64,000 bases of DNA, taken from positions 1-64,000 of the IMG/VR virus record IMGVR_UViG_3300023070_000002; one strand, given 5' to 3'. The notes under the pieces are model-generated. The model was not told the DNA's origin. It ran no database searches and saw only the letters and a program-made list of their open reading frames with translations. The stretch is from a virus (taxonomy: Duplodnaviria; Caudoviricetes). The position numbers were made by a program, and so were the translations under genes. The number at the start of each line of letters is the position of its first letter. Position 1 is the stretch's first letter. Below, one piece after another: positions 5,253-50,484 of this stretch.

Positions 5253-5443
5253 AGAAATATTTAGAAATAGTTCATTACAATGGCGATGTTGATACGCGCA
5301 TTGATGTATCCACTCAATCCCAACACAACATTGATCGAATCGAAAGAGGGGCAAACATAAACCTCAACCATGCAAACTACTATACACGAGTAATTGAATC
5401 CCCTACCGAACTCCCTACTGACCTTAAAAAACAAGCAAAATGA
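5249..5443 (+). CDS. hypothetical protein
   Basis: ORF with coupled overlaps. Confidence 0.6.
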   Translation: MKKYLEIVHYNGDVDTRIDVSTQSQHNIDRIERGANINLNHANYYTRVIESPTELPTDLKKQAK

Positions 5444-5709
5444 AAAAAACAATCCTTGTAGCATTTTCAACCCTTTTACTGTCCTATTCTTTAAAGGCGC
5501 AAACTACTTCGGTAAAGATAATTGAGGTTAAAAACAAGGGCGCGAAAGCCGCTGTAATCAAAGCAATAAACGATAAAGGGGAAATATTTACTTTGCGTTA
5601 TGGATGGAGTAAGCATGATCCGGCTCCAACTGTCGGGGAATGGCTGCAAATAACCCCATTAAAAACAAAAAGAGGTAGGTACCTTAAAGCGAATATTTCT
5701 GTTTGGTAG
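5440..5709 (+). CDS. small secreted protein
   Basis: Signal peptide MKKTILVAFSTLLLSYSLKA followed by Gln. Confidence 0.7.
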   Translation: MKKTILVAFSTLLLSYSLKAQTTSVKIIEVKNKGAKAAVIKAINDKGEIFTLRYGWSKHDPAPTVGEWLQITPLKTKRGRYLKANISVW

Positions 5710-8714: not shown

Positions 8715-9299
8715 GTGGAAAAGAAAATTGAAGTATGGCTGCCAGTTGTAGGATACGAAGGACTGTATGATGTTTCCGACTTAGGAATGATAAGAAGCGT
8801 TAGACGAAACAACAAATTATTGAAACGATATATATGCAAAAGCGGCTATTATGAGGTCGGGCTTACCGTAAATAATAAAGTAAGAACGTTACGGGTTCAT
8901 AGGTTGGTAGCTAAGGCGCATATAGAAAATCCACACAATTTCCAAGTTGTGAACCACAAAGATGGGAATAAATTAAATTCTGCTAAGAGCAATCTTGAGT
9001 GGTGTACCTCTTCATATAACGTAAAACACGCCTACGCCATTGGGCTGTCAAATCCTTTTTGTCCTAAGAGGCTGAAAAGATTGTCAGATGCATCAATCGC
9101 GCTATGTAAACCTGTTTTGGTTACAGATGTAATAAACAACACTATTTTTAATTTCCCTTCTATAAAGAAAGCCGCCGAGTTTATCGGCATTTCCCATTCA
9201 GGCGTATCTCATGGCATAAAGCATGGTCGTAGGCTTATGAATAACTATACAGCCTCATACGCCATCGATAAACCCTCTCTCCCAACCACAGTAAAATAA
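8715..9299 (+). CDS. NUMOD4-HNH homing endonuclease
   Basis: EVWLPVVGYEGLYDVSDLG (NUMOD4); VHRLVA...VNHKDGNKLN...NLEW (HNH); C-terminal SIKKAAEFIG HTH. Confidence 0.9.
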   Translation: MEKKIEVWLPVVGYEGLYDVSDLGMIRSVRRNNKLLKRYICKSGYYEVGLTVNNKVRTLRVHRLVAKAHIENPHNFQVVNHKDGNKLNSAKSNLEWCTSSYNVKHAYAIGLSNPFCPKRLKRLSDASIALCKPVLVTDVINNTIFNFPSIKKAAEFIGISHSGVSHGIKHGRRLMNNYTASYAIDKPSLPTTVK

Positions 9300-9304
9300 A
9301 CGTT

Positions 9305-9781
9305 ATGAAATACTGGAACAAAGTCACTTCATTATTGCCGAAAAGTGCTGGGACTTATGAGACAATTGACCACGTTGGCGCGCAGGCCGATCGTCACTTT
9401 AATGGTTCTTCATTTACAAATCACAATGGTTACCGGGTGGAGTTGTGGCGGGAAAAGTCCGCATCTACCATTCAGGCGGAGGATGTGTTATATAAATTCA
9501 CCCCGATAGAAACATCTAACGGTGGCGACGCATTCCGTTCCGACGATGTTTTAGCCGCCATGCAATCCTACCGCCAGCCATTAGAGCAGGAAGTGGAACA
9601 ATTCAAGGCGTGGAAGGAATCGGCAATGACCGTAATGAACAATATCGATCTCCAGGAGTGCGCTAAGGTTATTGGTTTGCCTTGGGGGGCAGATATTAGC
9701 ACGTCTATTTTACCGGCGTTGAAATCGATGAAAGCCGAAGTAGAGAGATTGAAGCAACAGGCGGAAGGTCTAAAATATTAA
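9305..9781 (+). CDS. hypothetical protein
   Basis: 158-aa ORF. Confidence 0.6.
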   Translation: MKYWNKVTSLLPKSAGTYETIDHVGAQADRHFNGSSFTNHNGYRVELWREKSASTIQAEDVLYKFTPIETSNGGDAFRSDDVLAAMQSYRQPLEQEVEQFKAWKESAMTVMNNIDLQECAKVIGLPWGADISTSILPALKSMKAEVERLKQQAEGLKY

Positions 9782-9835
9782 CCAGATAAACCTATAAGCA
9801 ATGAAGATTTACGCAAATTTTAAAAGTCATACATC

Positions 9836-10213
9836 ATGAATTACAAAATTAAAACCATAAACCTAAAGAAGGAGAACGAATGGTTAGATAACGCGCTCGT
9901 AGGCAATAAACACCGACCCCTGAAATGGCTGTCTTCGTTTATTTATCTAAATCTTTTTAGATGCGAGAAAGAAGGTGTTGAATACACATATAAAAACTGG
10001 GAGCATGTGTGTAAGGTAAACGCGGGTATTCAGCATAAAAAGATAATGAGAGAAATAAAGGAAGAATTTGAGGAATTGAATAAAGGTGCAAAATTCTATA
10101 TTATGAACAGAATTATTAAAGACCACTTTGAGAAAGAGAGATTAATGTCAACAGTGGCCGATAGAACTTGCGAGATAAACAGATACTTAAAACTATTATA
10201 TTCTAACCCATGA
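9836..10213 (+). CDS. hypothetical protein
   Basis: 125-aa ORF. Confidence 0.6.
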   Translation: MNYKIKTINLKKENEWLDNALVGNKHRPLKWLSSFIYLNLFRCEKEGVEYTYKNWEHVCKVNAGIQHKKIMREIKEEFEELNKGAKFYIMNRIIKDHFEKERLMSTVADRTCEINRYLKLLYSNP

Positions 10214-13422: not shown

Positions 13423-13914
13423 ATGAGAAAGTTCACACTAATTGCAGTGCTCTTTTGTGCAGCACTCACAACAACCAACGCGCAGTCCATTTCCTACATT
13501 TCTAAAATGAACAACTACGTCAATCAGGCGCAAACGTTCACCCAATGGTATGCAACGCATGACGCAACTCCAAGTCAGGCTATGGCTTCTACAGAATTTA
13601 ACGATATGCTGAATGCAGCAAAGGCGTTTACACAAGCGGAGCACGATGCGAATTTTCAGATTCTCATGGGCAATATTACTGAACTGGAAAAAATGGGTCA
13701 TCCCGGGAACCCCGTGCAAGTAGCCCAATGTTTAATGACCGGCGTTGCAACGTTTGTGCAATGCAACCAACAGGCATTGAATTATCCAAATCCTCATGGC
13801 GCACTTTGGTTATGTGGGCGTGATTTAGCGAGCTGGAACCTGGCCTGTACCGGTCAGGGATCTTTCCCGCCGCCTACTGGTGACGAAACAAGCAATTTTC
13901 CTCCCGGGCGTTAA
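13423..13914 (+). CDS. secreted protein with a four-cysteine C-terminal domain
   Basis: Signal peptide MRKFTLIAVLFCAALTTTNA then Gln; four Cys in the C-terminal third. Confidence 0.7.
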   Translation: MRKFTLIAVLFCAALTTTNAQSISYISKMNNYVNQAQTFTQWYATHDATPSQAMASTEFNDMLNAAKAFTQAEHDANFQILMGNITELEKMGHPGNPVQVAQCLMTGVATFVQCNQQALNYPNPHGALWLCGRDLASWNLACTGQGSFPPPTGDETSNFPPGR

Positions 13915-14200: not shown

Positions 14201-14926
14201 CTACCCCAATACTTGATTGATCTTATTGTAGTATTTCAGGCGTACGTCGTAGCCGATAGCTGTACGCTCTTTACTGCCTGTATTGATGACAGAGCACACC
14301 TGTTTAAAGGTGCCTGTTTTGGACAGTGAGATTAGGTTTCGGTATACGGCAAAGAACCAGCAAGCAGAATCGAGCGCGCCTGTATCGGTATCTTGCGCAA
14401 ACTCTGCCGCCTCTTCCGGTGTCATACCTTTATATTTTCCATAGTCGGCATAAGTAGCACGTCCTGTTAGTCCTATGAACCCACCGCCTTTAAACGTCCA
14501 CCCATCCCTTGTACCGGGAATATTTCCCATTCTTGACCCGTAGCAATCTATGGCAATCTCAACGGGCTTTCGGTGGAAGTACTTCGCCCGGTCGTTGGGG
14601 ATATAAGGCGGCTTCGAAGTGGATGAATAACGGCCGGGGAAAGTATTCGCGAGCCCCTGCGCGCTGTAATTCATATTTTCTTCTTTGTGCGCAAATTCTC
14701 CACTCTCCTGAAGCAGGTTCGCCAAGAACATTCGAAAAGGCAATTTCTCTGTTATCCCATAGTGGGTACATAGTTCGTTGATTAAATCCGCTAGTTCCTT
14801 GCAACGTTCTTTACTTAACGTTGAGGTCACTGCGTCCAATTGTTCCCGGGTAATGAACATAGTCTTAGGCATTTTATCTATAGCAAAGGATGATATTAGG
14901 CGGGCGAACCAGCCGGGCATCTGCAT
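14201..14926 (-). CDS. endolysin, glycoside hydrolase family 19
   Basis: FLANLLQESGEF..KEENMNYS, and GWTFKGGGFIGLTGRATY. Confidence 0.9.
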   Translation of the reverse strand: MQMPGWFARLISSFAIDKMPKTMFITREQLDAVTSTLSKERCKELADLINELCTHYGITEKLPFRMFLANLLQESGEFAHKEENMNYSAQGLANTFPGRYSSTSKPPYIPNDRAKYFHRKPVEIAIDCYGSRMGNIPGTRDGWTFKGGGFIGLTGRATYADYGKYKGMTPEEAAEFAQDTDTGALDSACWFFAVYRNLISLSKTGTFKQVCSVINTGSKERTAIGYDVRLKYYNKINQVLG

Positions 14927-15429
14927 TACACTGTCCTCCTTTTAACCGTCCACACAACCCCGCCGCCAAGTACAGCGGCCAGCCCGATGATGATCCAGAA
15001 GCGTATAATGGCTATCCTTCGCCATTTATCGTACTCCTTGGTCTTGGCTTCAAGTAAGGTGATTGCGCGCCGGGAATCGCCGCGGGCTAGCTCCAGGGCG
15101 GCTGTATTTTCAATCTCGATAGTATCGTGGATGGTAATACGCTCCACGGTTCGGATGCCTGGAAGTTGCACGGTCTTGTATATGCGTACCGTATCGTGGC
15201 TGTAAAGGGTATCGTAGAAGGTTGTCCCCTCTGTGTAAAAAGTATCGCGCCTGGTAATAGTATCGCGCCGGACCGTCCCAACCTTCGGAGGGTAAGTAAT
15301 AGCGCAATACTCCTGCCCTACCTGCGGGAAGGTCGTAACGGCTTTCCCCAGTGCTATCTTAGCCTTTCGTTCAGAGTAGCAGGAGACGAAAAGAATGCAC
15401 AGTATAGTGGCGGCAAGGGTCGTCCTCAT
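14926..15429 (-). CDS. unimolecular spanin candidate
   Basis: N-terminal lipobox LFVS-C, C-terminal TM helix (FWIIIGLAAVLGGGVVW), next to the endolysin. Confidence 0.7.
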   Translation of the reverse strand: MRTTLAATILCILFVSCYSERKAKIALGKAVTTFPQVGQEYCAITYPPKVGTVRRDTITRRDTFYTEGTTFYDTLYSHDTVRIYKTVQLPGIRTVERITIHDTIEIENTAALELARGDSRRAITLLEAKTKEYDKWRRIAIIRFWIIIGLAAVLGGGVVWTVKRRTV

Positions 15430-17113: not shown

Positions 17114-17839
17114 TCACAATGAAGTTATTAAAAAGTTCGCTATAACTGAATCTCCCACCGCGTTCGGATGGAGTCCGTCAACGTCGAAGTATGTCGCATC
17201 CAGCCCGTTCATTGCTGCGTATACATTTCTGTACAAACAACCGTTTTCACTTGCAACATCCTCGGTTACTTTTACATAAGATAATGCCCGGGCTGCGTCT
17301 GCTGCAACAGAAGTTCCGCAGGCGCCAACATAAGCGTTCCATGAATATGGCTGATAAGGGGCAAGAAGAATAACCCGGCTGGGCGGCCACCCATAAGTTG
17401 ATATTGCACTTGTTACGGCCGTCGTATAGGCTGTTTTAAATTCTGCTGGTGTTGATCCTGCACCCCCGGAGTTCCATCCTATATCATTTTCGCCTAAAGA
17501 AATAAATAGTGCCGAGTGTGTTGACGGATTGTAGGCTGGAATCGTAGCCGGATTAAAGACAACAATCCCGCAGGAATTACTCATAGTTTGCCCGTCAATG
17601 CCCATATTGAGTTCTGTGGCGTATTTTGCGTGGCAAAATACACTAGTCCATTTCTGGTTACCAAGGTTAACAGGCAGCACTCCCCGGGTAATAGAATTGC
17701 CAATAAATACACAGGTTTTATCACAGAAATTAATCCCCGAAGCTCCAATACACGGGCTCCCAACCGTTCCAATTACTATGTTTTGGCTTTTTGCTGAAAA
17801 AGAGATTATAAAAATAAGTATGGCGAGTAGGTATCTCAT
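17114..17839 (-). CDS. exported SGNH/GDSL esterase
   Basis: FIGNSIT (block I), GIDG (II), LGEND (III), DGLHP (V). Signal peptide MRYLLAILIFIISFSAKS-Q. Start moved to ATG 17839, which forms an ATGA overlap. Confidence 0.85.
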   Translation of the reverse strand: MRYLLAILIFIISFSAKSQNIVIGTVGSPCIGASGINFCDKTCVFIGNSITRGVLPVNLGNQKWTSVFCHAKYATELNMGIDGQTMSNSCGIVVFNPATIPAYNPSTHSALFISLGENDIGWNSGGAGSTPAEFKTAYTTAVTSAISTYGWPPSRVILLAPYQPYSWNAYVGACGTSVAADAARALSYVKVTEDVASENGCLYRNVYAAMNGLDATYFDVDGLHPNAVGDSVIANFLITSL

Positions 17840-20364
17840 AAACCGTATTGCTGAGGGTAGTAACATTTTCCTGACACGAAAACATTCAGGTTTAAATAAA
17901 AGGTTGCGGTACTGGTTGTGCCGAAGGTGTGTCTGGTTGTCCACGTGTTGCCATCTGGTGATGTTTGGATTGTAAATAAATTACCCGTCCTGTTTAACAT
18001 TACATAATCACCAACTGAAAGAATATATCCTGTGGGAGCCGGTGTGCCGTTAGTAACTGAATATACATCACCACCCGGATCGAGGTACATGCCATATTCA
18101 TAATGTGTATAATCCTCATTTACGTTCGAGGAATTAAACCCTATTATTATACTTTCACCGTCACTTGCCTGATATTTTATACGGTAACTTCCATCGCCTG
18201 TGAGTGTCTTTGAATCAAGCCCGTATTGATCCCAAAGTGTCCCTCCTACAGGAGTCCAGACATTTGAGGTTACGGCTATATTATATCGGGTTGTAAATGT
18301 TAAATCCTTCCAGCCTGTGTTTTGGCCGGTTATTCTGTAGTTACTTCTATAATTATATGCCTTGATTGTTATCCTGTCCAGGGTATCAAATGCAGGCCAT
18401 ATCTGAACGCGGCCAATTGTTGTGTCAACCCTTATTCCATAGGTCGTGTCCGGTTGCATCAATAACCCGTTTCGATAAAGTTCTATGTGCTTCCCTATAA
18501 AACCAGTATTTGTAATTGTTGAATCCCCTATTTCAGGGTAAGATGGCTGCCCAACTATAAAATTCATCGTTCCCGTACTGTCAGTTCTGCTTGGAGTTGT
18601 AAGAATAAAATTATTACCGGATACCCACGTTACTACCTGACCTGTAACACCCCCTGTCGTATTAATGTTGCCAGCCTGTCTCCTTCCGACATTACCATGT
18701 ATTGGATCCCATACTAATGCGCTGTCGGTAACTGCACCGGCTTGAACACTATCAATAATAAATCTGCCCAAGTGTGGTCTGGCTATAATTGAATCCGGAT
18801 ACACATAAAAGTCGGAAGCTGCGCCTGTTTTGAATGTTTGGAAACTATTGTAAGCCCCGATAGATTGAATATCCGATATGTTGTCGCCAACCGTAGTTCT
18901 GAACAGCATTCCGCTTGATGCGGCAATATTAAATTCTCCATTATTATCAAATGTCAGATCATTGCCATCGCCGTCTACTGTTCTGTTCCCTGTTAATGTT
19001 CCGTCTGTATTATAGATGTTGGCAATCCCACTTTTCAATGTTTTAACCAATCTGCCAGATGGAGTAATTCCTACCATATAGGTGGTTGTATCGGTAAGCG
19101 ACAGGTTTTTTGCTCGTATATCTCCTGCTGTATTGTTTAACAATAAAGAGTCGTACAAACTTAACGAAGACATTGCACCTGAAGTTATTGAACCCCGTAA
19201 AAGCATATTATCCCCGGCATCATGCTGTACCTGTCCTGATACTGAAGATGTCCATTGCCCAACATCGGTAATATCGAAATCGAACCCGCCGCCGTTAACT
19301 GACCTATTAGCTGTAAATATGCCATTACTATTGTATATGTTAGGCAATCCGCTCTTTAGTGTTTTTACCAACTTCCCATCTACACTAATACCTGTTATGT
19401 ATTGTGTTGTATCGGATATTGGCAAAGTATTTATTCTTAAATCAGGTGTATTAAGATTAATCCGGTCAGCAGTAACACTAAATTGTCCAACATCGGAAAA
19501 GTTTATGTCGTTTCCCCCGGCATTAATATCAGTAGCATCAAGCAATGTCCCGCCCCATTGAATATTGTTTCCTGTCTTTGTTAGACCATTATCGGCGGTT
19601 ATTCCCCCTCCGATCAAAGAATCGACTACAAACCGTCTTGTTACTAAAGAATTGGGGGTAAATAATGATCCGGGATATATAATCCGTCTTGTTGTTGATG
19701 TGGAATCGGCGGTTATAAAAAGAGTATTATTATTATTATTAAACCGGATTGGTGATGCAAAAACATCAAATTTTGCCAAGTCAGTAAATGTTAACCCGTA
19801 TGTCTCATCCCCGGTCAGCGTCCTTTCGCTTGTTAAGGTTAAGTTGCTATTACCTATATTAGCTAAATCTTGTTTCAATGCAATAGTGCCTGAACTATCG
19901 GGTAAATTCCAACGTCTTGTTCCCGATAATGGATTAGGAGTAAGGTAGGCAGGAATTGTAGATTGTACAAATGTTAAGGTATCTGGCCTCATTTGCAACT
20001 CATCGCTCCCTTTATATACCAGTATCATATTATTGGTAGTATTGCCAATATCAGTCACCTGTTGCAGGTTTTGTGATCCACCACCACCAGAGCCGCTTCC
20101 AAGCTTAATCCACTTGTTTGCATTTATTGACCTGATCCAAATGGAAGTGTCGCCGCTGGTAAATATTTGTGCTCCCGGGTATTGCCTTATTCTTTCGAGG
20201 TTGGCCGCTGTGGTATCTGCATAAACATAATTAATGATACGCCCCTTTAAACCACCCCTGCTCGTAACTAATGTTGAGTCTGCGCCTAATGATTGACTTA
20301 TTGGGTATTGACCCGATGCGTTTAAAAATATGAAAAACAATACAAAAGATAAAACCAGCTTCAT
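17836..20364 (-). CDS. tail-fibre-like protein with a Sec signal peptide and many D-S/T sequons
   Basis: G/T/N-rich beta-type sequence with internal repeats, located between tail and lysis genes. Signal peptide MKLVLSFVLFFIFLNASG-Q. Start moved to ATG 20364. Confidence 0.7.
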   Translation of the reverse strand: MKLVLSFVLFFIFLNASGQYPISQSLGADSTLVTSRGGLKGRIINYVYADTTAANLERIRQYPGAQIFTSGDTSIWIRSINANKWIKLGSGSGGGGSQNLQQVTDIGNTTNNMILVYKGSDELQMRPDTLTFVQSTIPAYLTPNPLSGTRRWNLPDSSGTIALKQDLANIGNSNLTLTSERTLTGDETYGLTFTDLAKFDVFASPIRFNNNNNTLFITADSTSTTRRIIYPGSLFTPNSLVTRRFVVDSLIGGGITADNGLTKTGNNIQWGGTLLDATDINAGGNDINFSDVGQFSVTADRINLNTPDLRINTLPISDTTQYITGISVDGKLVKTLKSGLPNIYNSNGIFTANRSVNGGGFDFDITDVGQWTSSVSGQVQHDAGDNMLLRGSITSGAMSSLSLYDSLLLNNTAGDIRAKNLSLTDTTTYMVGITPSGRLVKTLKSGIANIYNTDGTLTGNRTVDGDGNDLTFDNNGEFNIAASSGMLFRTTVGDNISDIQSIGAYNSFQTFKTGAASDFYVYPDSIIARPHLGRFIIDSVQAGAVTDSALVWDPIHGNVGRRQAGNINTTGGVTGQVVTWVSGNNFILTTPSRTDSTGTMNFIVGQPSYPEIGDSTITNTGFIGKHIELYRNGLLMQPDTTYGIRVDTTIGRVQIWPAFDTLDRITIKAYNYRSNYRITGQNTGWKDLTFTTRYNIAVTSNVWTPVGGTLWDQYGLDSKTLTGDGSYRIKYQASDGESIIIGFNSSNVNEDYTHYEYGMYLDPGGDVYSVTNGTPAPTGYILSVGDYVMLNRTGNLFTIQTSPDGNTWTTRHTFGTTSTATFYLNLNVFVSGKCYYPQQYGL

Positions 20365-20366
20365 AA

Positions 20367-20615
20367 TTAACAACAATTTGATTTAGTATATAAAATAATT
20401 AATTTATTATTTGTAACCCATGTACCTATTTGAATGGTTATTGTTCCTGTTGTACTGTCAAATACGTAATCCGGGGAAGGCTCCAAGTCGTTTTGCGGTA
20501 CGTTGTCGATGATTATTAAATGCACAATTGCATTACGTATAATCTCACTGGTAAAATAATTAGTCCCTAATAATGGTCCTCCGGGGAAACCCGCCACAAC
20601 TTTAAGCGAAGTCAT
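20367..20615 (-). CDS. small tail-associated beta-module protein
   Basis: Resembles a module in both neighbouring genes. Confidence 0.55.
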   Translation of the reverse strand: MTSLKVVAGFPGGPLLGTNYFTSEIIRNAIVHLIIIDNVPQNDLEPSPDYVFDSTTGTITIQIGTWVTNNKLIILYTKSNCC

Positions 20616-20657: not shown

Positions 20658-21227
20658 TTATAATTGAGGATATATTTGGAATATTTCGCCTACTTGTGCC
20701 GGGCTTTCCGGGTACGTAGGGCTGTTTACATCATCTGACAAGAACGACATAATCCCATTTACTTTGTCCCAAGAATAATACGATGCGCCGTTTGGTACTA
20801 CTGACTGAGTTATTCCATTTCTTACAAACAAAACATTATACCCTATAAACAATGGTATGTGTACGTCAGGAGACCCATCGCTAACAAATGAACTACTACT
20901 AACAATAAAATCGTAAGGGGCTGGATAACCACCCGGATTTATTGGGGTAACTGTTCCGCCACCTGCTTGTCCAGAAATCGCTTGCGCCTCCTGCCCCCAC
21001 ATGTTCGTTAGCCAAATGAGATAATTTGCCGTTGCTCGTAATGATTCATTAGTTTGTGCGCCCCCGTCATATCCAAACCTCAAAGCATCCGTAACCATAG
21101 CTATTGTAACGGCAGATACCGGCGCTTTCGTCCCCCCAAATAAAGTACCACGACTATTATAATTAGCCGCCAAATACGTACTTATGTCGCCGCGTATTGT
21201 TGTTTCTGGTACTGTTGGATATGCCAT
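20658..21227 (-). CDS. putative tail-fibre attachment/adapter protein
   Basis: Helical N-terminus, GGG linker, C-terminal beta module; start moved to MAYPTV. Confidence 0.5.
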   Translation of the reverse strand: MAYPTVPETTIRGDISTYLAANYNSRGTLFGGTKAPVSAVTIAMVTDALRFGYDGGAQTNESLRATANYLIWLTNMWGQEAQAISGQAGGGTVTPINPGGYPAPYDFIVSSSSFVSDGSPDVHIPLFIGYNVLFVRNGITQSVVPNGASYYSWDKVNGIMSFLSDDVNSPTYPESPAQVGEIFQIYPQL

Positions 21228-21228: not shown

Positions 21229-21738
21229 TTAGAAAAATACATTTTGGTTTTGCTGCATCCATATTTCACGATCAAAACAGGCTTGTGCCGCAGATAAATC
21301 GCTACCGTATGTTATCGCATTGATACCGGCAATTAAGTTTGTCCAAAATATCGCCAGATTGCCCGAATAATTTGTGTCTTGATAAATTCCGGGAGTTAGC
21401 CCCTGCAACCCTATGAGATAGTAAAAAAACTGCATCCCAAATTGACACAGTGCAAAAGTGTTCTCCACTTCATCAACCACTACATTAGTTACCGTCAGCC
21501 ATTGAACTTTAATGAGTGCCGCCGTGTCGTTTACTAAAATATCCAACGTAATTGAGGATTGAGCAAGCGGCCATTCTGTGTAGTTTACCGTCCCGTCCCC
21601 GGTCAAGTATGTGCCATCGCTTTGGGAAACAAAGACGCGCCGTTGAGTGATTGTCCCGCTTAACCCGGTCGAATCATCCGTAATGGTGACATTAGCCGGA
21701 GTACTTGCGCTTTGACTAACTTGGAAGGATGCGGGCAT
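21229..21738 (-). CDS. putative tail structural protein
   Basis: 169 aa, beta-rich; first gene after a likely promoter. Confidence 0.5.
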   Translation of the reverse strand: MPASFQVSQSASTPANVTITDDSTGLSGTITQRRVFVSQSDGTYLTGDGTVNYTEWPLAQSSITLDILVNDTAALIKVQWLTVTNVVVDEVENTFALCQFGMQFFYYLIGLQGLTPGIYQDTNYSGNLAIFWTNLIAGINAITYGSDLSAAQACFDREIWMQQNQNVFF

Positions 21739-30379: not shown

Positions 30380-33300
30380 TTAGCGTACATTTAAGGGACT
30401 ATCAATGTATCGGCAGATTAATTCATTCAAATTTACGAGTTCTGACGCGTTTGTAATTTGAAATTTTGCTACGAGCCAATTACCTTTCATAAAATCACCG
30501 TTCCATTTTCCGCCTCTTGAATTAACATCTCTTTTCCAGCTAGCGGACGGCATCGCTTCCAGGATTTTAAATTCTGCCTCTACAAGGTTTGTTTCCTGAC
30601 GCTGCGCCCCGTAACTTTTTGTATCAGTGTATGCAATAGGTACCGCCCATATTACATCCGCATCCTCGGAAATGCTTTGCCACCCCTTTTTGGGCATCCC
30701 TTCAGGGTTAAAAACAACGGTAATCGAACAGTCATATTGCTGTCCGAAGAAATTACAATACGGGGCTAAATCACTTTTCTTCCACAGTTGGCCATTCAGG
30801 AACATATATACATTGTCATCTGCGCTCAAAGCCCATTCAGGGTGTTCGTCAAAATCGCCAGTAAATCCATTTCTTGTTTCATTAAAACAATAATTCCGGT
30901 CGGGCAGTACATTCGTCCCTTGCAGAATAGTATGGGCTTCACTCTCAAAGCTATCCCAATACTTCATCACTTTGGCAATAAACCCGTTTGGTCTTATTTG
31001 AGTGCGGTTATATGGCGTTACATATCCCGATAACGTAAATTGTCCCTTGTATAGTAACCCGAGATCATTTAAGCCATCACCCGCAAGTCTCACTTCCCGC
31101 CCTGTTATCACATCGTTAAAATAATCGGCATCTGCGCTGCTGCAAAGGTTGGTTGGGTAACCACCCAACCCATACATTCCCTGATAATAATTGATATTAT
31201 TCTGTGTGATAATTACATTGGTTGTTACTAGTTGGTTGTCGCCATCATTATTTTGAATAAACCGGGAGTATACCCCCCACTGCCCTACACCCCTGTCCTG
31301 AAAAGTCCGGAGTATTTTTTCGCGTATTTTAAACCTTCTTATATCGCCATAACTTCTGATTGCTTCATCATATTCGTCTTCCTGAAAAATATTCAACCGG
31401 TTAATATTTGTTCCGGGCTGATACGCGCCCCCCCACCTTACTAAAACACCATTATATTCTGTTTTCGCATCGGGGTTTATTGGCCATCCGCGCCCATCAG
31501 AATTTACTTTACTTAAAAAATAATCACTATAACCAGTGTCCATTACGGTCATGGTCTTGGTTGTTGTGGCATCAACGTCAAGATAAAATATTCTTGGCTT
31601 AAAATAATTATCCCCTTTATAAAAAAGAAATGTTGCCGGTTGTGTGGCATTTTGTTCCTGTAAATTACCTCCGTGGTATAACTGACCGCTTCCGGGCTGG
31701 TTAGCATTGATCTCAAATGTTTCACCAAATTCAAAAAATACCTGTTCATCCCCGTTTGTTCTTAGAAGTGGCGAGTATAGTTCAATAAAAGAATTGGCCG
31801 TATATGCCGGGAAGGAGGTGCTTGGCTTTTTAACTTTAATAAACCTGCCTAGCGATGCCGGGCTTGTCATTGTCCTTTGAACCGTTCCCAATACCTCAAA
31901 ATCAAGTACCGGGGCATATAACGTCCTGTCACCATTGGCGGGATTATAATTTGCAATTACCCGGATCCTGTCCCCTTCTTTAAAATCGTAAGAAGGGATA
32001 AATCCGGTGTTTTTTGTTTTAAGGTAAGTCAGGTTCTGAATGCAGAAATATAAATAATCTGTATCGGTTTGATAATCGTTAGTTACCAACTCAATGTATG
32101 AATTAGTTGTTTGATTGGATGTTCTGACCCACTGGAAACGTCTTGCCCAACTTGGCGGCAGGTGGTTAATACTAGCCATCATGTACGGTATGTACTGATT
32201 TGATGGCGGCTCTGACATGGTAGCAAAGTCACGGCTGTTATATCCAAAATTATTCAGTACAGTTTCCGTATTAACGAAGGAGATAACCCCGTTTGTTTTC
32301 CCACGTTCATCAAAATAAATCAATCCCCAACGGTACTGACTTGACCATTTTAAAACTGAGTTTGGATATGGAACTGTGAAACTGGAAAGGTTAGTATATT
32401 CCACATATTGGTCAGGAAATGATCCTGCCGGGTTAGTTGTTACAATAGAAATAGTATTGCCCGTTCCTGCCTGCGTTGCAGAAACTTCGGTGTTAATCCC
32501 AAGTGTAACTAACTCTGCGTTCAATAGCGCCGTAAAGGCTGTTGTTATATCTGAAAGTGTGTCTGTTAACCCCGGCGTATAGCTAACATCAATTGTGAAC
32601 ACAACGCCGTTATCATACCTAACCCTTAGCTGAATGGTTGTATTACTGGCAGCGCTGCCTCCGATAATAACAGTAAGTTCCGTATCGGAAATATTCTCCG
32701 CGTTTATAACTAATGCTCCTTCCCCTTCGCCAAGACCTGAATACATATAAACCTCACATTGGGATTCAGCAAGGTTTGGATAGCCTTCTGTAATACCCCC
32801 ATAGATAATTACATTGCCATTTAATACCTCTAAAGTATTTGCCTTATCTGGAAGGTAGCTGTAATATAAATCACTTTCTTCTATTGGGATAGTCGTGTAA
32901 ACGGAATCATTTGTAAACCGGAAGGTAAACGTGCCAAGTGTAAAATCTGAAGCTGGAATAGTGGTAATAGAAAAATAGTCGCTCCATGTGCTCCCTTGGC
33001 ATTCCTGTCCCGCTATTTCCACACCTGTAATATCACCAACCGTTGTATTATCGCTTAGTCTTGCCACCCCTTCAATAATAATAGTGTTATTTTTTGTCGG
33101 GTCTGTCAGGTTGGTTTGATTGAATCCGTCGATTGGGAGTGGCATTTTCGACAGAGAAGAAAATGCAGACTTTTCAAGATTGGAGAATAAAAACCTGTAT
33201 GCGAACCTAAACAGTCGTTTGGCTAAATTATTTACATTAAAATTAGCATCATTAGCGTAAATCACGGAAAGCGTTTGCATCGGCCAATCTTTCCCGGCAT

Positions 33301-33796
33301 TTAGCATATCTGAAATAAAAGGAGATAATGCTGCTACGGTATCAAGATTAAGATACTTTGGCCGGTTATTTCCGTCAGTCCAATATAGTAAATCACCGTC
33401 TCCTTGCGTCCTGTATACGAGTGCTGCGGAGTGTACCGGGTAGTTGGGGCTGAAATTTAAAATGTCTGTGGCGCTGTTTGTCCCGCAAATGAATATCGGG
33501 GAAATAAGTTCGGTATTAATTGACAACTGGTAAATACCATTATCGCCGTTGCTATTCCAGTTAAACCAAATTATCCGGCGTTTAACGGAATCATAGAACG
33601 CGCCGATACACTCATTCTCTCCCCCCGGAAGGCTGGCGTTATTTATTAGATAATTACCGCGAATGTTTTGAAATGACAGCCCGTTTGCACCGCCATAAAA
33701 TCTACCGTTGAGGGCTTGTATATGCTGCGCAGGGAGTATGTCCGGGTTTTGATCGTCCGAATTTAAAACCCCCGCAAATCTTTTTACAACAACCAC
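30380..33796 (-). CDS. tail stabilisation/nozzle protein (P22 gp10-like, crAss-type)
   Basis: 1138 aa; FAGVLNSDD...ALNGRF start, LYWTDGNNRPKYLN propeller blades, RWGLIYFDERG. Confidence 0.75.
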   Translation of the reverse strand: MVVVKRFAGVLNSDDQNPDILPAQHIQALNGRFYGGANGLSFQNIRGNYLINNASLPGGENECIGAFYDSVKRRIIWFNWNSNGDNGIYQLSINTELISPIFICGTNSATDILNFSPNYPVHSAALVYRTQGDGDLLYWTDGNNRPKYLNLDTVAALSPFISDMLNAGKDWPMQTLSVIYANDANFNVNNLAKRLFRFAYRFLFSNLEKSAFSSLSKMPLPIDGFNQTNLTDPTKNNTIIIEGVARLSDNTTVGDITGVEIAGQECQGSTWSDYFSITTIPASDFTLGTFTFRFTNDSVYTTIPIEESDLYYSYLPDKANTLEVLNGNVIIYGGITEGYPNLAESQCEVYMYSGLGEGEGALVINAENISDTELTVIIGGSAASNTTIQLRVRYDNGVVFTIDVSYTPGLTDTLSDITTAFTALLNAELVTLGINTEVSATQAGTGNTISIVTTNPAGSFPDQYVEYTNLSSFTVPYPNSVLKWSSQYRWGLIYFDERGKTNGVISFVNTETVLNNFGYNSRDFATMSEPPSNQYIPYMMASINHLPPSWARRFQWVRTSNQTTNSYIELVTNDYQTDTDYLYFCIQNLTYLKTKNTGFIPSYDFKEGDRIRVIANYNPANGDRTLYAPVLDFEVLGTVQRTMTSPASLGRFIKVKKPSTSFPAYTANSFIELYSPLLRTNGDEQVFFEFGETFEINANQPGSGQLYHGGNLQEQNATQPATFLFYKGDNYFKPRIFYLDVDATTTKTMTVMDTGYSDYFLSKVNSDGRGWPINPDAKTEYNGVLVRWGGAYQPGTNINRLNIFQEDEYDEAIRSYGDIRRFKIREKILRTFQDRGVGQWGVYSRFIQNNDGDNQLVTTNVIITQNNINYYQGMYGLGGYPTNLCSSADADYFNDVITGREVRLAGDGLNDLGLLYKGQFTLSGYVTPYNRTQIRPNGFIAKVMKYWDSFESEAHTILQGTNVLPDRNYCFNETRNGFTGDFDEHPEWALSADDNVYMFLNGQLWKKSDLAPYCNFFGQQYDCSITVVFNPEGMPKKGWQSISEDADVIWAVPIAYTDTKSYGAQRQETNLVEAEFKILEAMPSASWKRDVNSRGGKWNGDFMKGNWLVAKFQITNASELVNLNELICRYIDSPLNVR

Positions 33797-33805
33797 GTTT
33801 AAAAT

Positions 33806-34078
33806 TTATGGCAAATCTGCCGACTCTGTGAAAATTATTTTTGCTTCTGGTATAATTGTATACGACTGCCCATTATACACAAATACTCCGACTATATCAG
33901 TATTTTTAAACATAACAGAACTACCCACGGTTCTTTCTCCATTGTTAACCCACAACTGATCTATTGCCCCAAACAGGAACCCTGTGTCAGGCGGGACTAT
34001 ATTTTGTGTTGAAGATGTGCTACTCCCACTTCCATATATGGAAACGTATCCAGCGGTTAAAAATACAGGTAGAGACAT
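33806..34078 (-). CDS. small tail protein
   Basis: 90 aa within the tail operon. Confidence 0.5.
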   Translation of the reverse strand: MSLPVFLTAGYVSIYGSGSSTSSTQNIVPPDTGFLFGAIDQLWVNNGERTVGSSVMFKNTDIVGVFVYNGQSYTIIPEAKIIFTESADLP

Positions 34079-34846
34079 TTATGCTTTTACAGTTAATCGG
34101 CTGGTTTCTAAATTTTGAATGTATGCCTGATCCAAATAAAAAGGGCGGAATCTTGCTTTGCCTCTTCGTAAGGCTTCAAAATAATCATGTCTTCTGATTT
34201 GCTTATCTCCTAAATTCCCTTTCCTTGAAGATGGCATATTAGCTATGTCCTGCCAAGCCAACCAGCATATCATTGTCTCCCTGAATTCTACGGGGATATA
34301 ATATTCACTTCCTTCCGTTGGACTTGCGGTGTACTCCAAAATGCAATTATCCCATAAGAAGTCACTGCCCAAGAGTATAACACCGTTATGGTTATCAATT
34401 TTAAAGCCACCACCATAACTATAATCCCCGGCAATTCCATAGAAATTATCGCAGCTATCACCGTTCCAGTAGTTAAAAAAAACAGGTGAACTAAAAGAAT
34501 AAACGTCCGCGATTTCTGATTGATTTACTTGGGCAATCCTGTTTGGTTGCAAATCTGCAAACGTAGTAAGTTTTTCGTTATACTTAAGCGGGATTACTTC
34601 CCCTGCACCATTTAAGACACCAAATTTATTGTAGTGGATAAAATCTGCGGGTAGTGTAATGGTTTTGTTCGCATTGATGGGCAATTTTACTGACTTGACT
34701 TGGTAAAAAAAATCTATCCCCAACTCTTCCATAAGCGTGAATGCTAAATGAAATAGTTTGAAGTATTTGCTTTGCGAAAGTTCTGCCCTGTTTATATAAT
34801 CATAAATAGCAGAATCTAACGTTATCCATTGCCTGCGCTGCGACAT
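34079..34846 (-). CDS. tail tubular/ring protein
   Basis: VKSVKLPINANKTITLPADFIHY...CILEYTA; crAss-type ring protein pattern. Confidence 0.65.
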   Translation of the reverse strand: MSQRRQWITLDSAIYDYINRAELSQSKYFKLFHLAFTLMEELGIDFFYQVKSVKLPINANKTITLPADFIHYNKFGVLNGAGEVIPLKYNEKLTTFADLQPNRIAQVNQSEIADVYSFSSPVFFNYWNGDSCDNFYGIAGDYSYGGGFKIDNHNGVILLGSDFLWDNCILEYTASPTEGSEYYIPVEFRETMICWLAWQDIANMPSSRKGNLGDKQIRRHDYFEALRRGKARFRPFYLDQAYIQNLETSRLTVKA

Positions 34847-34855
34847 TATTAAATA

Positions 34856-35278
34856 TTATTTTTTCTTAGATTTCTGCACTGACTTATCGCTTTTTGATGG
34901 CTTCTCATCGGATGCCAGTTTATGAAGTGTTTCTTCTTCATTATCCGGTGCATCGGAATCGGGCAGCGCATCAATTGTTTCATCTACCAATTCAATGAGA
35001 TCGGCATTTTCAACGGTATGCCCGGCTTTATTATCCGTAGAATTGGTATGCTCTGAACTGTTCTTGGCTGCCATACAAAAACCTTGTGGAAAGTTTTGCA
35101 ACTCAACTGGCAGGTGCGTAGAAAGACCGACAAAATATTCCATTTGCTCCGAAGTAATTCTTTCCGTTGGTTCTACTTCTGCGAACCATTTTTCATACTT
35201 TGATTTTACGATGCTATCGGGTATCTTGTTTATAAAAACAAGGAGAGAGGCTATGGCATTTGGCGTTAAAGTGTACAT
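34856..35278 (-). CDS. hypothetical protein
   Basis: 140 aa with an acidic tail. Confidence 0.55.
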   Translation of the reverse strand: MYTLTPNAIASLLVFINKIPDSIVKSKYEKWFAEVEPTERITSEQMEYFVGLSTHLPVELQNFPQGFCMAAKNSSEHTNSTDNKAGHTVENADLIELVDETIDALPDSDAPDNEEETLHKLASDEKPSKSDKSVQKSKKK

Positions 35279-35297
35279 AATATTTATAATTTAATTT

Positions 35298-35933
35298 TTA
35301 CGTTGTTTTTACTGCTGGCTGGCCGTCATTCGAAGCATCTACAGGTTGATTTCTTTCCAATAGAAGTTGTTGTTGAATATAGGACACAACGATTGGCAAA
35401 CTATCGTCAGGCAGGTTTAATGTACTGTTTAGATTCGTACTGTCACCCCCGCTAATCAATGTTACCGTTGCTGTATAATCTGTCATTATGATAGTAGTTA
35501 TCACAAAACAAAATTCACCTTCCGGGTAAGCCAGCACTTTATTAGGTATGACTCTCATTGACCTGTAATAGCCAACTTGGTTTTCGCTTAACAGGACAGC
35601 GGGATAGCTTATGTTGCTATTACTGTCCTTAAATAATATCCTCGAAATACCTTCTGTGTTTCCTATTGATAATGGTATTTGCGGCAATGTAAACTTATAT
35701 AAAAACTGTTCATCTTTTGTGACAGTAAGTCCTTTAAAGGTTGAATAGAAGCTATTGTTTACAAAACCTATCCCTTCAAGTTGAATGTTTTCTTTATAGT
35801 TGTTTTTGGCGGCCACTGCAATGCCCTGATTAATCCAAAGGTTAATAAGATTGTCGGTTATATCAGCCTCATCGACAGGGAACCCGCCGTATACCTGCCG
35901 CCTCAACATTTCTATAAAAGTCCTTCTGGTCAT
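35298..35933 (-). CDS. tail tubular/ring protein
   Basis: Helical N-terminus, beta core and C-terminal helix, as in head-tail adaptor rings; synteny. Confidence 0.55.
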   Translation of the reverse strand: MTRRTFIEMLRRQVYGGFPVDEADITDNLINLWINQGIAVAAKNNYKENIQLEGIGFVNNSFYSTFKGLTVTKDEQFLYKFTLPQIPLSIGNTEGISRILFKDSNSNISYPAVLLSENQVGYYRSMRVIPNKVLAYPEGEFCFVITTIIMTDYTATVTLISGGDSTNLNSTLNLPDDSLPIVVSYIQQQLLLERNQPVDASNDGQPAVKTT

Positions 35934-35947
35934 TCTTTATACTAGTT

Positions 35948-36220
35948 TTATGGATACACGCCAAATACCGAACTCAACGCAGTTAACGCGGCTGCAACAC
36001 TCGCTGGCGCACTTCCGCTTCCAGCTACCCTCAAATCTGCCAACGCACAAGAATACTCGCCAAATGTACCTATCTGCACATTTATCGTTGTACCCGCTGA
36101 ATTAAACGAGTACATAACCGGGAATCCTATGTAACATTGTATTGCTCCTGCAACACCTTCAACTGTTGTTGTTACCTGAATTTGATTGCCTTGCTTTGTA
36201 AAGTCGATTGTAGTTGCCAT
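35948..36220 (-). CDS. small structural protein
   Basis: 90 aa, T/V/G-rich. Confidence 0.5.
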   Translation of the reverse strand: MATTIDFTKQGNQIQVTTTVEGVAGAIQCYIGFPVMYSFNSAGTTINVQIGTFGEYSCALADLRVAGSGSAPASVAAALTALSSVFGVYP

Positions 36221-36891
36221 TATTGACCATTTTGTTTTTGTTCTTGAGAGAATTGCATTACAGCGCCTGCGCTCAAATTAACACCGACTAACATCAACGC
36301 GCGTGAAATAATGTCGAAAATAGCTACCTCGTCCCAAACCGGCTGCGTACTTGTGGCGGGATTATACACCGGGATGCCATTAATATCAAATGTATACCCC
36401 CACACCATATCCGGACATTCTTTTACGTAATGTAATCTGGCTGACTGCCTGTTTTGCGGATAAAAAACAAACCCTGTATCTTCTAAAACGTAAATTGGGT
36501 TTGTTGATACTGGATCGATTGTGCTATTGTATATCGAAACAAACTTATGCTGATCTGCATATCTTATTCGCTGAAAGCCGTATAAACTCCACATTGCATC
36601 TGTCTGCAAGTAATTACCGGGATATGGACTATATCCGTTAACATCAACATTTAAATTATACCCGTAAATAATTGGGGCAAGCCTCTGCCTTACGACTGAA
36701 TTTTGCCCCAATTCAACTCTGGCCACCGGTCGACCGGGTGTATATTGTTGAAATACCCCTAGAAGATAAGCGACGTAATTTTTCTGCGCTTGATTTATTG
36801 CCGTATGAAAGTCTTCAGGGCTAAGATAGCCTTGTTGTAGGTTTTTAGCTACTACATACAACATCGTACGATAGACTTCATCTACGTTCAT
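36220..36891 (-). CDS. head-tail adaptor/ring protein
   Basis: MNVDEVYR.M...AKNLQQGYLSPEDF..AINQAQ; crAss-type ring protein start. Confidence 0.65.
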   Translation of the reverse strand: MNVDEVYRTMLYVVAKNLQQGYLSPEDFHTAINQAQKNYVAYLLGVFQQYTPGRPVARVELGQNSVVRQRLAPIIYGYNLNVDVNGYSPYPGNYLQTDAMWSLYGFQRIRYADQHKFVSIYNSTIDPVSTNPIYVLEDTGFVFYPQNRQSARLHYVKECPDMVWGYTFDINGIPVYNPATSTQPVWDEVAIFDIISRALMLVGVNLSAGAVMQFSQEQKQNGQ

Positions 36892-36911
36892 CCTTTAGGG
36901 TACTTTTATTT

Positions 36912-37805
36912 TTATCCGAAAAACGTTCTCAATTGTTTGCTAAAGTTAGCATTATCTTCCCCATGAAGTTGTGCAAACTCAATTAAATATTCTACCGCAT
37001 CTCTTCCTTCCGGCAACGCGGAAATAAATCCACCGTCAACCCAATATGCTGCACCGGGTTGTTTACCTAAATCTATCTTGCCTTCATTGATCCCCCGCCT
37101 TACCATGTGGGCTACTTTTACGGTAGGTGACTGAATACTAACAAGAAATTTTTTCGCGTTATTTTTTGCATAGCGGATATAGGCGTTACGCAATGCGCTT
37201 TCATCCAATTCAACGCCCATTTCATCCTGAAATTCGATATTTAAATATTTCGCGTGAGGGATTACCTCTGCAATAGGCGTGGTCATTGCGAGTTGCATGG
37301 CTTTTATCACATCGTTTTCCTCAGCAATTGCCACTTGATTTAATTCTACTGGATTCCACTCATAAAAGTAAATATCTTTGGGACGTGCTTGATCCTTATA
37401 CTTCTTTTGATTTGATTGATTTCGCATTGTTAATTCCGCCGCCTGAAGGTGCATAGGTTTATTTATAGGAATAATACAAATCCCTTTATCAAATTCCAAG
37501 CACTCAACATTTTTAGCAACGTACTCTTTGGGGAATACGGACGGTGGTTGTTCATCAAACCAAATAGTATTTGCCCCTCTAAGCAGTCGCATCCTTCTTT
37601 GTCTGCCTGTTTTTGGGTCAATCACATCTTCTTCCACATCTAAAATTACTTTGCCCTGCCTTTTATCATTGGACAGTATAAATATTCTATTAACTGCCTT
37701 TTTAGAAACAAGAGTTTCAGTTGTTGGCGTAAACACCGATTCTGTTAATTCCGGGGCTTGCAATACTTCTGTATCGCTTATGGTGTCCGGCTGATCTTTT
37801 TTCAT
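36912..37805 (-). CDS. conserved virion-associated protein downstream of the major capsid gene
   Basis: 297 aa; conserved position in crAss-like head modules. Confidence 0.5.
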   Translation of the reverse strand: MKKDQPDTISDTEVLQAPELTESVFTPTTETLVSKKAVNRIFILSNDKRQGKVILDVEEDVIDPKTGRQRRMRLLRGANTIWFDEQPPSVFPKEYVAKNVECLEFDKGICIIPINKPMHLQAAELTMRNQSNQKKYKDQARPKDIYFYEWNPVELNQVAIAEENDVIKAMQLAMTTPIAEVIPHAKYLNIEFQDEMGVELDESALRNAYIRYAKNNAKKFLVSIQSPTVKVAHMVRRGINEGKIDLGKQPGAAYWVDGGFISALPEGRDAVEYLIEFAQLHGEDNANFSKQLRTFFG

Positions 37806-37828
37806 TTTATTTTTAATTATTGATTACT

Positions 37829-37862
37829 AAAAGAAGGGAACCGTCTAGTAAACGGTTCCCTT
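37829..37862 (-). terminator. intrinsic terminator after the major capsid gene
   Basis: AAGGGAACCGT / ACGGTTCCCTT 11-bp stem, then CTTTT on the minus strand. Confidence 0.8.
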
Positions 37863-37869
37863 TATATAC

Positions 37870-49537: not shown

Positions 49538-49667
49538 TAGGATTTTGTTTAAACATATTATACTTCCCTTTCATCATTTTATAAGTTTCTTTTAGCGTCA
49601 ACGGATTATTTTGACTCATGGCTAACCTTGCCAGTTTGCGCAATCCCTTAGCTTTTTTGCTGTTCAT
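49521..49667 (-). CDS. 48-aa basic protein (absent from the ORF track)
   Basis: MNSKKAKGLRKLARLAMSQNNP...NAKTK overlaps both neighbours. Confidence 0.55.
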   Translation of the reverse strand: MNSKKAKGLRKLARLAMSQNNPLTLKETYKMMKGKYNMFKQNPNAKTK

Positions 49668-50469: not shown

Positions 50470-50484
50470 TTTTTAGACAATATT

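Follow-up and report, generated by a model that had tools for sequence, protein, structure and literature searches.

A phage tail-fibre-like protein with a predicted export leader and an excess of Bacteroidota O-glycosylation motifs

We describe a tail-fibre-like protein (the fibre, for short) encoded by an uncultured tailed phage (Duplodnaviria; Caudoviricetes) represented by IMG/VR record IMGVR_UViG_3300023070_000002. The window, i.e. the whole stretch of DNA analysed, comprises positions 1-64,000 of this record (64,000 nucleotides), the full record being 72,464 bp long and classified by CheckV as complete. The phage is distant kin of the Flavobacterium elemo phages and Cellulophaga podoviruses, as seen from its terminase (27% identity of TerL), its portal and several PHROGs annotated as 'virion structural protein'. 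Together with the type of export leaders detailed below, this kinship suggests a host from the phylum Bacteroidota. Neither the Bacteroidota promoter motif TAnnTTTG, which shows no enrichment in the window (68 occurrences versus 80 expected), nor tRNA genes, of which none was found, are of help for the host assignment. A preliminary description of the fibre, made from the DNA alone, had proposed that it is exported, glycosylated by the host and joined to the particle at lysis, or else that it acts at the surface of the infected cell.

The locus, the fibre and its leader

The fibre gene belongs to a string of co-oriented late genes, the 5' part of which encodes the terminase, the portal, structural proteins, a 1138-aa muzzle-like protein and proteins of 228, 479 and 2139 aa, and the 3' part proteins of 169, 205 and 82 aa, followed by the fibre, an SGNH esterase, small transmembrane proteins, a spanin-like lipoprotein and an endolysin. 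A location between tail adapters and the lysis cassette, as given in the preliminary description, holds as far as the place is concerned, but the term 'tail adapters' was a guess, the upstream genes matching no known family. We found no further gene of fibre-like or lectin-like character in the complete genome of 72,464 bp, and beyond the fibre and the esterase its leader-bearing products comprise only small proteins and the lysis lipoprotein. The gene and the parts of its product are as follows (sequon denotes the Bacteroidota O-glycosylation motif D-(S/T)-(A/I/L/V/M/T); pLDDT, the predicted local distance difference test score; ConA, concanavalin A).

17836-20364, minus strand: fibre gene, ATG at 20364, stop codon at 17838-17836; 842 aa
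20311-20364, minus strand: predicted Sec/signal peptidase I signal peptide, aa 1-18 (MKLVLSFVLFFIFLNASG), with predicted cleavage before Gln19
20080-20310, minus strand: N-module, aa 19-95, about 75 aa with the pattern QYPxxQxxGxDSxLVxSxGGLKGR...DTTAAN...YPGAxI...W.R...W
18640-20073, minus strand: shaft, aa 98-575, rich in Thr, Gly, Ser and Asn, with 9 of the 16 sequons
18352-18591, minus strand: small beta domain, aa 592-671, with sequons D595, D614, D639 and D647; model pLDDT 93-97
17839-18300, minus strand: predicted C-terminal jelly roll of the ConA-like, SPRY or CBM66-like type, aa 689-842, without a sequon; AlphaFold pLDDT 96-99

The fibre starts with MKLVLSFVLFFIFLNASG followed by QYPISQ and thus combines a lysine at position 2, an uncharged hydrophobic core of 12 residues and a predicted cleavage site flanked by Ala (-3), Gly (-1) and Gln (+1). 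This layout (M-K, the hydrophobic stretch LVLSFVLFFIFL, then N-A-S-G) conforms to the heuristic n/h/c and (-3,-1) rules, on which, and not on SignalP, all leader calls reported here rest. The next methionine after Met1 is residue 116, leaving no nearby alternative start. Of the 109 homologues detected with a hidden Markov model (HMM) built on the mature N-module, 100 have a hydrophobic leader 15-30 aa long; eight of the other nine are gene calls starting inside the leader and one has a longer upstream start, none being cleanly leaderless. The residue at -1 is Ala, Gly or Ser in 59 of 60 homologue rows, Ser, Val, Gly and Ala being the commonest at -3, and Gln occupies +1 in all 61 aligned rows; in the full set, Gln stands at position 1 of the N-module in 95 of 109 proteins and is offset by one residue in the others. 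Among homologues the hydrophobic core varies freely in sequence, as is usual for signal peptides. A leader ending directly before Gln, as read in the preliminary description, is therefore borne out in this protein and, apart from the few truncated or extended gene calls, throughout the N-module family. Gln at +1 and its cyclisation to pyroglutamate (the Q-rule) are specific to signal peptidase I substrates of Bacteroidetes (PMC5837995). We consider export of the fibre by Sec and signal peptidase I very probable, and infer that cleavage and pyroglutamate formation follow.

The N-module, found in 109 of 161 representative homologues and always right after the leader, carries the conserved sequons D29 and D50 and ends in a Gly-rich linker (aa 88-97). 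Its invariant residues are Q19, G37, D50, T51, N55, R78 and W85. Modelled as a monomer, aa 19-230 reach high confidence (pLDDT >90) only between aa 46 and 90, and the fold matches of this region are weak (Z ≤4.2), pointing mostly to neck or trimerisation domains of tailspikes and fibres and to the N-domain of the Bordetella phage Mtd protein (Mtd_N). The shaft shows multi-stretch matches to fibre-like homologues and is poorly modelled as a monomer (pLDDT about 50). It contains two copies of a unit of about 105 aa with the pattern NIYNxxGxxTxNRxVxGxG, and aa 316-371 and 423-478 are identical at 28 of 56 positions when set side by side; the repeats mentioned in the preliminary description are real to this extent, but a BLAST comparison of the protein with itself gives no off-diagonal match at E<0.01. 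In the small beta domain that follows, three aligned positions carry D-S/T motifs in the homologues inspected.

The C-terminal part is modelled with confidence, aa 540-842 reaching pLDDT 90 when modelled with 52 homologues. The tip domain resembles, in VIA, the SPRY domain 2yyo (Z 14.2; root-mean-square deviation 2.9, 144 residues aligned) and CBM66 4b1m (Z 12.7), as well as the phage proteins 8zdo, a Douge baseplate protein (Z 12.5), and 9n6a, the receptor-binding domain of TM4 gp23 (Z 10.8). Its Foldseek matches in PDB and BFVD include lectins, minor tail proteins, tail-fibre proteins and structural proteins of Cellulophaga phages, the best match to a predicted viral structure being a structural protein of Cellulophaga phage phi13:1. 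Judged by these models, the domain is likely a glycan-binding tip. The C-terminus of the protein is this ConA-like domain, and NCBIfam searches of this protein and three relatives at E up to 0.1 detected no C-terminal sorting domain of the type IX secretion system (T9SS; TIGR04183/TIGR04131 type).

Glycosylation motifs in the fibre family

The fibre contains 58 Asp residues, 19 of which belong to D[ST] and 16 to the full motif D[ST][AILVMT], with all 16 sequons located after the leader (D29, 50, 128, 220, 248, 318, 405, 425, 524, 538, 547, 595, 614, 639, 647 and 660). These values are identical to the hand counts of the preliminary description, and its rough expectation of about five sequons comes close to the analytic value of 4.82. 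The observed number lies far outside the range obtained by shuffling the mature chain (mean 4.80, standard deviation 2.05, maximum 14), none of the 20,000 shuffles reaching 16. The other proteins of this phage, pooled, contain 54 sequons versus 48.2 expected, so that signal-less proteins stand at about 1.1 times chance; the structural module has 19 versus 19.7 expected, and the 2139-aa protein 2 versus 5.9. The signal-less fibres of the cultured Cellulophaga phage phi38:1 are likewise at chance (5 versus 5.1 and 1 versus 2.9). The 160 representative homologues of the fibre, on the other hand, pool to 1442 sequons versus 548 expected, a 2.63-fold excess.

The excess is specific to the motif. 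Among the same 160 homologues, the ratios of observed to expected occurrences are 0.99 for the reversed motif, 0.95 for N[ST]H, 1.02 for D[GN]H and 0.98 for D[AV]H, and D[ST] is even rarer than expected (0.66) when a non-permitted residue comes next. It is also unevenly distributed along the chain. The last sequon of the fibre is D660, leaving the final 182 aa free, in agreement with the stretch of about 180 aa noted in the preliminary description; within the tip itself (aa 689-842), zero sequons versus 0.73 expected is not significant alone, but across the 52 homologues that share the C-terminal module (C-module) the lectin-like tip holds only 9 versus 38.3 expected (a ratio of 0.23). In the same 52 proteins the beta domain before the tip has 123 versus 26.2 (4.7-fold) and the parts upstream 200 versus 44.6 (4.5-fold). 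The two N-module sites are retained as valid sequons in 44 (D29) and 55 (D50) of 61 rows.

The spanin-like lipoprotein encoded further downstream has 4 sequons versus 0.57 expected, placed in a short stretch rich in RRDT, and its counterpart in a related phage (L002, 15226-15771) has 5 versus 0.49. A second, unrelated exported protein of the phage thus seems, from its sequence, to be tuned to the host glycosylation motif.

According to a review (PMC12871550), use of the D-(S/T)-(A/I/L/V/M/T) motif is restricted to non-cytoplasmic proteins, occupancy of its sites is almost complete, and motifs that are engineered or of foreign origin also receive the glycan. Adaptation of the fibre to the host O-glycosylation motif is strongly supported by the sequence comparisons, and given the near-full occupancy and the glycosylation of foreign proteins reported in that review, we judge it likely that at least some of the sequons are used by the host system.

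Relatives, neighbouring genes and known systems

An HMMER scan of 1.84 billion representative sequences retrieved 574 relatives and revealed a modular family: aa 1-95 match a large set of proteins, in every case starting at residue 1-3 of the matched protein, and aa 540-842 match another set. The C-termini of proteins with the N-module are diverse and include lectin tips, the SASA esterase domain (PF03629), PTL_trimer and K1-lyase_C; precomputed tables place PF26696 (PTL_trimer) in many of these homologues, and it is absent from the fibre itself. Two C-module proteins with seemingly different N-termini (P0021 and P0023) also turned out to have a leader and a divergent N-module (1e-16). Every contig examined carries its homologue within a phage late operon, and the idea of a captured host adhesin was set aside on these grounds.

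The genes around the fibre are the following.

17114-17836, minus strand: SGNH/GDSL esterase, 240 aa, predicted to be exported (PF13472, 1.5e-12, above cut-off)
20367-20615, minus strand: 82-aa protein, the next gene upstream, separated from the fibre gene by a 2-nt spacer
20658-21227, minus strand: 189-aa late protein without a signal (the '205-aa' open reading frame read from Met17), the usual immediate upstream neighbour of the fibre
21229-21738, minus strand: 169-aa late protein without a signal, upstream of the 189-aa protein; conserved, fold unassigned
14926-15429, minus strand: spanin-like lipoprotein, with lipobox LFVS followed by Cys and a C-terminal transmembrane helix, both read from the sequence
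14201-14926, minus strand: endolysin (phrog_181, 2.5e-43)

Much of this arrangement recurs in related phages. In four of them (L002, L007, L009 and L010) the fibre comes after small proteins of about 170 and 180 aa that resemble the 169-aa and 205-aa ones, and these are preceded, on contigs long enough to show it, by a giant protein of 2300-3200 aa. L004 is laid out likewise, though the kinship of its small upstream proteins is doubtful, and the short contig L006 preserves only the pair of fibre and esterase. Lysis genes come after the fibre wherever the contig extends far enough. Homologues of the 205-aa/189-aa protein, 40-66% identical, precede the leader-bearing fibre in the same four phages; the 169-aa protein is 36% identical to a 175-aa protein at the same place in L002, and genes for 169-aa and 172-aa proteins occupy the matching place in L009 and L010, their N-termini resembling the 169-aa protein by eye. 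The 82-aa protein has no counterpart in any of the four. Between the 205-like gene and the fibre, L002 has an additional gene for a 251-aa protein (9246-10001), the N-terminus of which looks by eye like a GIY-YIG homing endonuclease. Another gene worth mentioning, located on the 25-kb contig that carries the relative P0019 (16747-17097), encodes a 116-aa phage protein matching PF22827 (GldL_N, the N-terminal domain of the gliding/T9SS motor protein GldL).

The 189-aa protein is a candidate docking partner of the fibre. Searches of Pfam, PHROGs and PDB gave no match for it, and an Atlas lead to the N-domain of the T7 tail fibre was discarded since its score (0.83) lies below the trustworthy level. 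Pairwise BLAST of the fibre against its 82-aa and 205-aa neighbours gave nothing significant. Profile methods do connect the 80-aa beta domain of the fibre with the C-terminal half of the 205-aa protein, though weakly (hhalign probability 49%, E 1.7e-4 over 80 columns; i-E 0.016-0.066 in hmmsearch), so the two may possibly be related. At the place corresponding to the GDST sequon site of the beta domain, the cytoplasmic 189-aa protein has no sequon.

The esterase, whose ATG overlaps the stop codon of the fibre (translational coupling), has a leader of its own, MRYLLAILIFIISFSAKS, followed by QN after the predicted cleavage site as in Q-rule substrates, and inspection by eye suggests that its catalytic blocks (GNS, GEND and DGLHP) are intact. 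Possible substrates for deacetylation are a surface polysaccharide or, ahead of the endolysin, O-acetylated peptidoglycan. Orthologues 47-50% identical directly follow C-module fibres in L006 and L007, and the presence of a fused SASA esterase (PF03629) in other members of the family further ties the functions of fibre and esterase together. In several relatives the fibre is followed by additional genes with signal peptidase I-type leaders and Gln at +1, encoding among others a GDSL esterase, a 543-aa Peptidase_S74 protein, proteins with PKD and beta-helix parts, and small proteins. A fibre-like, receptor-binding character is supported by the ConA/SPRY-like tip, the conserved N-module combined with variable distal parts, the esterase partners, the synteny and the status of the gene as the sole fibre-like one in the genome.

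Cultured phages offer no direct homologue, as tblastn of 50,697 records with the fibre and the 205-aa protein found no match, and the N-module HMM detected nothing among all open reading frames of phi38:1, phi18:3 and elemoA. When N-module motifs were used as patterns to scan IMG/VR and 185,579 species genomes, no relative could be confirmed, which, the patterns being narrow, is weak evidence of absence from cellular genomes. PDB sequence searches with the fibre and with profiles of the N-module and the 205-aa protein returned nothing meaningful.

A comparison can be made with the cultured Cellulophaga podovirus phi18:3 (Pachyviridae; NC_021794), in which gp085, gp086 and gp087, encoded at 32891-38583, bear annotations as virion or tail proteins 'based on experimental MS/MS proteomics' (MS/MS, tandem mass spectrometry). 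All three start with signal peptidase I-type leaders (ending in FGYS, GVSA and GLNA, respectively) followed by Gln and are, like the fibre, products of late genes just upstream of the lysis genes. Also reminiscent of the fibre is the fact that the leader and the first 60-115 aa are common to PHROG families named tail fibre protein and pectate lyase, with distal parts that vary. By analogy, phi18:3 may serve as a precedent for leader-bearing proteins in purified virions of a Bacteroidota phage, at the level of the MS/MS annotation and irrespective of whether the detected proteins were processed. We found no discussion of the phi18:3 leaders in print.

Compared with known Bacteroidota substrates of O-glycosylation and the Q-rule, the fibre shares the Sec/signal peptidase I leader, Gln at +1 and the D-(S/T)-(A/I/L/V/M/T) motif in a soluble non-cytoplasmic region. 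It differs from the described O-glycosylation substrates, which are cellular proteins, in being a phage late protein with about three times the chance density of the motif and a motif-free tip. The review of the glycosylation system makes no mention of phages (PMC12871550), and our own literature searches found no description of phage proteins as Bacteroidota O-glycosylation substrates or of Sec-exported tail fibres in tailed phages, and nothing relevant on leader-bearing or glycosylated tail fibres of Bacteroidota phages or on PF26696/PTL_trimer.

Another parallel is provided by the MAT fibres of Bdellovibrio bacteriovorus, which have a signal peptide, a conserved beta-rich N-domain, a trimeric phage-like fibre and swappable adhesive tips (Caulton et al. 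2024, PMC10769870). The order of leader, conserved N-domain and variable tip is the same, and an S74 chaperone occurs in some MATs and in some neighbours of the fibre family; this likeness is one of architecture, as described in that paper. MATs differ in being encoded on the chromosome of a predatory proteobacterium and shown on its own surface, in the size of the N-domain (about 130 aa) and in that no sequon logic has been described for them, whereas the fibre family resides in genomes of lytic-type phages in a tail-to-lysis position. With classical cytoplasmic fibres and tailspikes the fibre shares the conserved N-module with variable distal parts, the lectin-like tip and the association with carbohydrate esterases (SGNH, SASA). 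It is unlike the phi38:1 fibres gp085 and gp087, which start MARIKNT without a leader and have chance-level sequons, in having a leader and a threefold sequon excess. Taken at the level of sequence, the protein looks like a Q-rule signal peptidase I and O-glycosylation substrate built as a tail fibre yet outside any curated tail-fibre family.

Proposed maturation of the fibre and its possible place in the virion

In the textbook view, tailed-phage morphogenesis is entirely cytoplasmic. The features reported above suggest a different route for one component. The fibre would be a late product of the co-oriented, closely spaced genes that also encode the tail and lysis proteins, translocated by the host Sec system and cut by signal peptidase I after Gly18, whereupon the new N-terminal Gln would be cyclised to pyroglutamate according to the Bacteroidota Q-rule. 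It would then fold in the periplasm, probably as a trimer, and the general O-glycosylation system of the host would decorate up to 16 sites distributed over N-module, shaft and penultimate beta domain, with no glycan on the ConA-like tip. The separately exported, translationally coupled SGNH esterase would have the same surface polysaccharide, or else the wall, as its target. Finally, once the holin, the endolysin and the spanin breach the envelope, the conserved N-module would dock the glycosylated fibre on particles built in the cytoplasm. Cleavage, pyroglutamate formation, glycan attachment, trimerisation and attachment to the virion are the presumed parts of this scheme, the last being the least certain; the leader with its conservation, the sequon statistics, the domain folds and the synteny are what the analysis shows.

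We give a probability of roughly 0.5 to the reading that the fibre is the receptor binder of the phage and joins the particles once the lysis proteins have opened the inner membrane. Its joining of the virion is argued from its being the sole fibre candidate and from the analogy with phi18:3. Fibreless T4 and P22 particles accept fibres or tailspikes added in vitro, a classical observation that makes attachment of the fibre after the breach of the envelope biochemically plausible. Of what the preliminary description proposed, export and adaptation to the motif are thus strongly supported, by the conserved leader and +1 Gln, the family-wide and motif-specific excess, the depleted tip and the lack of an excess in signal-less proteins, and the receptor-binding character is supported as well; the joining at lysis is still a matter of conjecture. 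More tentatively, such two-compartment assembly might be a lineage-wide habit of Bacteroidota podoviruses, as there are hundreds of relatives and the phi18:3 group would be an independent case.

Several points weigh against this reading. We know of, and found, no described precedent for a tailed phage adding a periplasmic part after lysis, and that the fibre is present in the particle is itself suggested by gene content and analogy. Sequence searches of this protein against Pfam, PHROGs, NCBIfam and PDB gave no tail-fibre family, and the fold matches to trimeric necks in the N-module are weak enough (Z ≤4.2) to be counted as a lead only. Several sequons occupy conserved positions, which means that part of the family-wide excess is inherited and not independent. 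The phi18:3 proteins gp085-087 have no detectable homology to the fibre or its N-module and are sequon-poor (1 versus 3.65, 1 versus 3.15 and 1 versus 2.93 expected; 3 versus 9.7 in total).

The main alternative, which we consider less likely and which resembles the second proposal of the preliminary description, is that the exported and glycosylated fibre is not a virion component and that, together with the esterase, it targets the infected cell's own envelope from the inside. By binding and deacetylating the receptor polysaccharide or the wall, the two would keep progeny from being trapped on debris, block superinfection or help lysis; they might also act after lysis as a free soluble lectin-esterase pair, and the real receptor binder would be another protein, e.g. 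the 1138-aa muzzle-like one. Such a role would fit with Sec export, which separates the fibre from cytoplasmic assembly, with the coupling to the exported SGNH esterase and the adjoining lysis cassette, and with the run of leader-bearing enzymes that follows the fibre in relatives (the GDSL esterase, the beta-helix/PKD protein and the S74-carrying protein). The MAT fibres of Bdellovibrio demonstrate that exported phage-like fibres can work on a cell surface (PMC10769870), and the weak resemblance of the 1138-aa protein to the crAss muzzle is a reminder that the other tail proteins are poorly understood. Pointing the other way, the fibre is the only fibre-like, lectin-tipped protein of a complete genome and keeps its late-operon position in relatives; receptor binders docked on virions classically combine a conserved N-module with exchanged distal parts; leader-bearing proteins are annotated in phi18:3 virions from MS/MS; and neither a T9SS C-terminal domain nor a lipid anchor that would hold the fibre at the surface was found in it.

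It is improbable that the fibre is exported and its D-[ST]-hydrophobic excess is just an inherited structural habit of this beta-rich fold, in which an Asx/ST turn would precede a strand, with the sites hardly or not at all glycosylated. The conserved positions of several sequons (D29, D50 and GDST of the beta domain) and their location at loop-to-strand borders in the confident model could be read in this way, as could the below-chance values of the leader-bearing phi18:3 virion proteins, which indicate that export does not force sequon gain. A structural habit, however, should extend to motifs of the same logic, and neither N[ST]H, D[GN]H nor the reversed motif is enriched, while D[ST] before a non-permitted residue is scarce. 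The equally beta-rich ConA-like tip is depleted fourfold, the signal-less phi38:1 fibres remain at chance, the unrelated exported spanin-like lipoprotein is enriched both here and in L002, and the near-complete occupancy of such motifs in exported proteins (PMC12871550) argues against idle sites. The motif specificity and the depleted tip are hard to explain by the fold alone, despite the inherited sites.

Finally, that the hydrophobic N-terminus is no working export signal (being buried in the tail or the result of a mis-called start) and that the fibre folds in the cytoplasm, as all known tailed-phage fibres do, is most improbable, considering that the n/h/c layout, the small residues at -3 and -1 and the +1 Gln are kept in essentially every family member while the core drifts, that there is no alternative start before residue 116, that the esterase and other predicted exported proteins of the phage share the leader type, and that the sequon excess makes sense only outside the cytoplasm.

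Returning to the exported receptor binder, the protein is probably a tail fibre that matures in a different compartment. If so, phages of a phylum dominant in the gut, soil and sea would borrow Sec with glutaminyl cyclase and the general O-glycosylation system to finish their organ of host recognition. This would affect the prediction and expression of receptor-binding proteins, cytoplasmic expression in E. coli yielding an unprocessed and unglycosylated product; it would affect the understanding of host range, the glycan coat being host-specific; and it would change views on the timing of lysis relative to assembly.

Some further observations concern the remainder of the window. The product of 30380-33796 (minus strand) has a weak, sub-cut-off similarity to the C-terminal domain of the crAss muzzle (PF25729, E 1e-3) and that of 35298-35933 (minus strand) one to crAss ring protein 2 (PF25702, E 2e-3), weak signatures that together suggest a tail architecture of the crAss type. 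Just upstream of the GroES-like and terminase genes lies a cluster of glycan-enzyme genes (46101-51394, minus strand), comprising a fusion of DUF5672 and GT9 above the Pfam cut-offs, a cupin or lyxose-isomerase-like gene, and GT2-like and methyltransferase-like genes, both below cut-off; its products might conceivably modify the host glycan destined for the fibre. Small predicted exported proteins are encoded in the early and middle regions, all on the plus strand, at 2327-2731, 5440-5709, 13423-13914 and 60476-60694; two of the four are lipoproteins and two are signal peptidase I substrates with Gln at +1, none having a family match. Remodelling of the envelope and exclusion of superinfecting phages are candidate roles for them.

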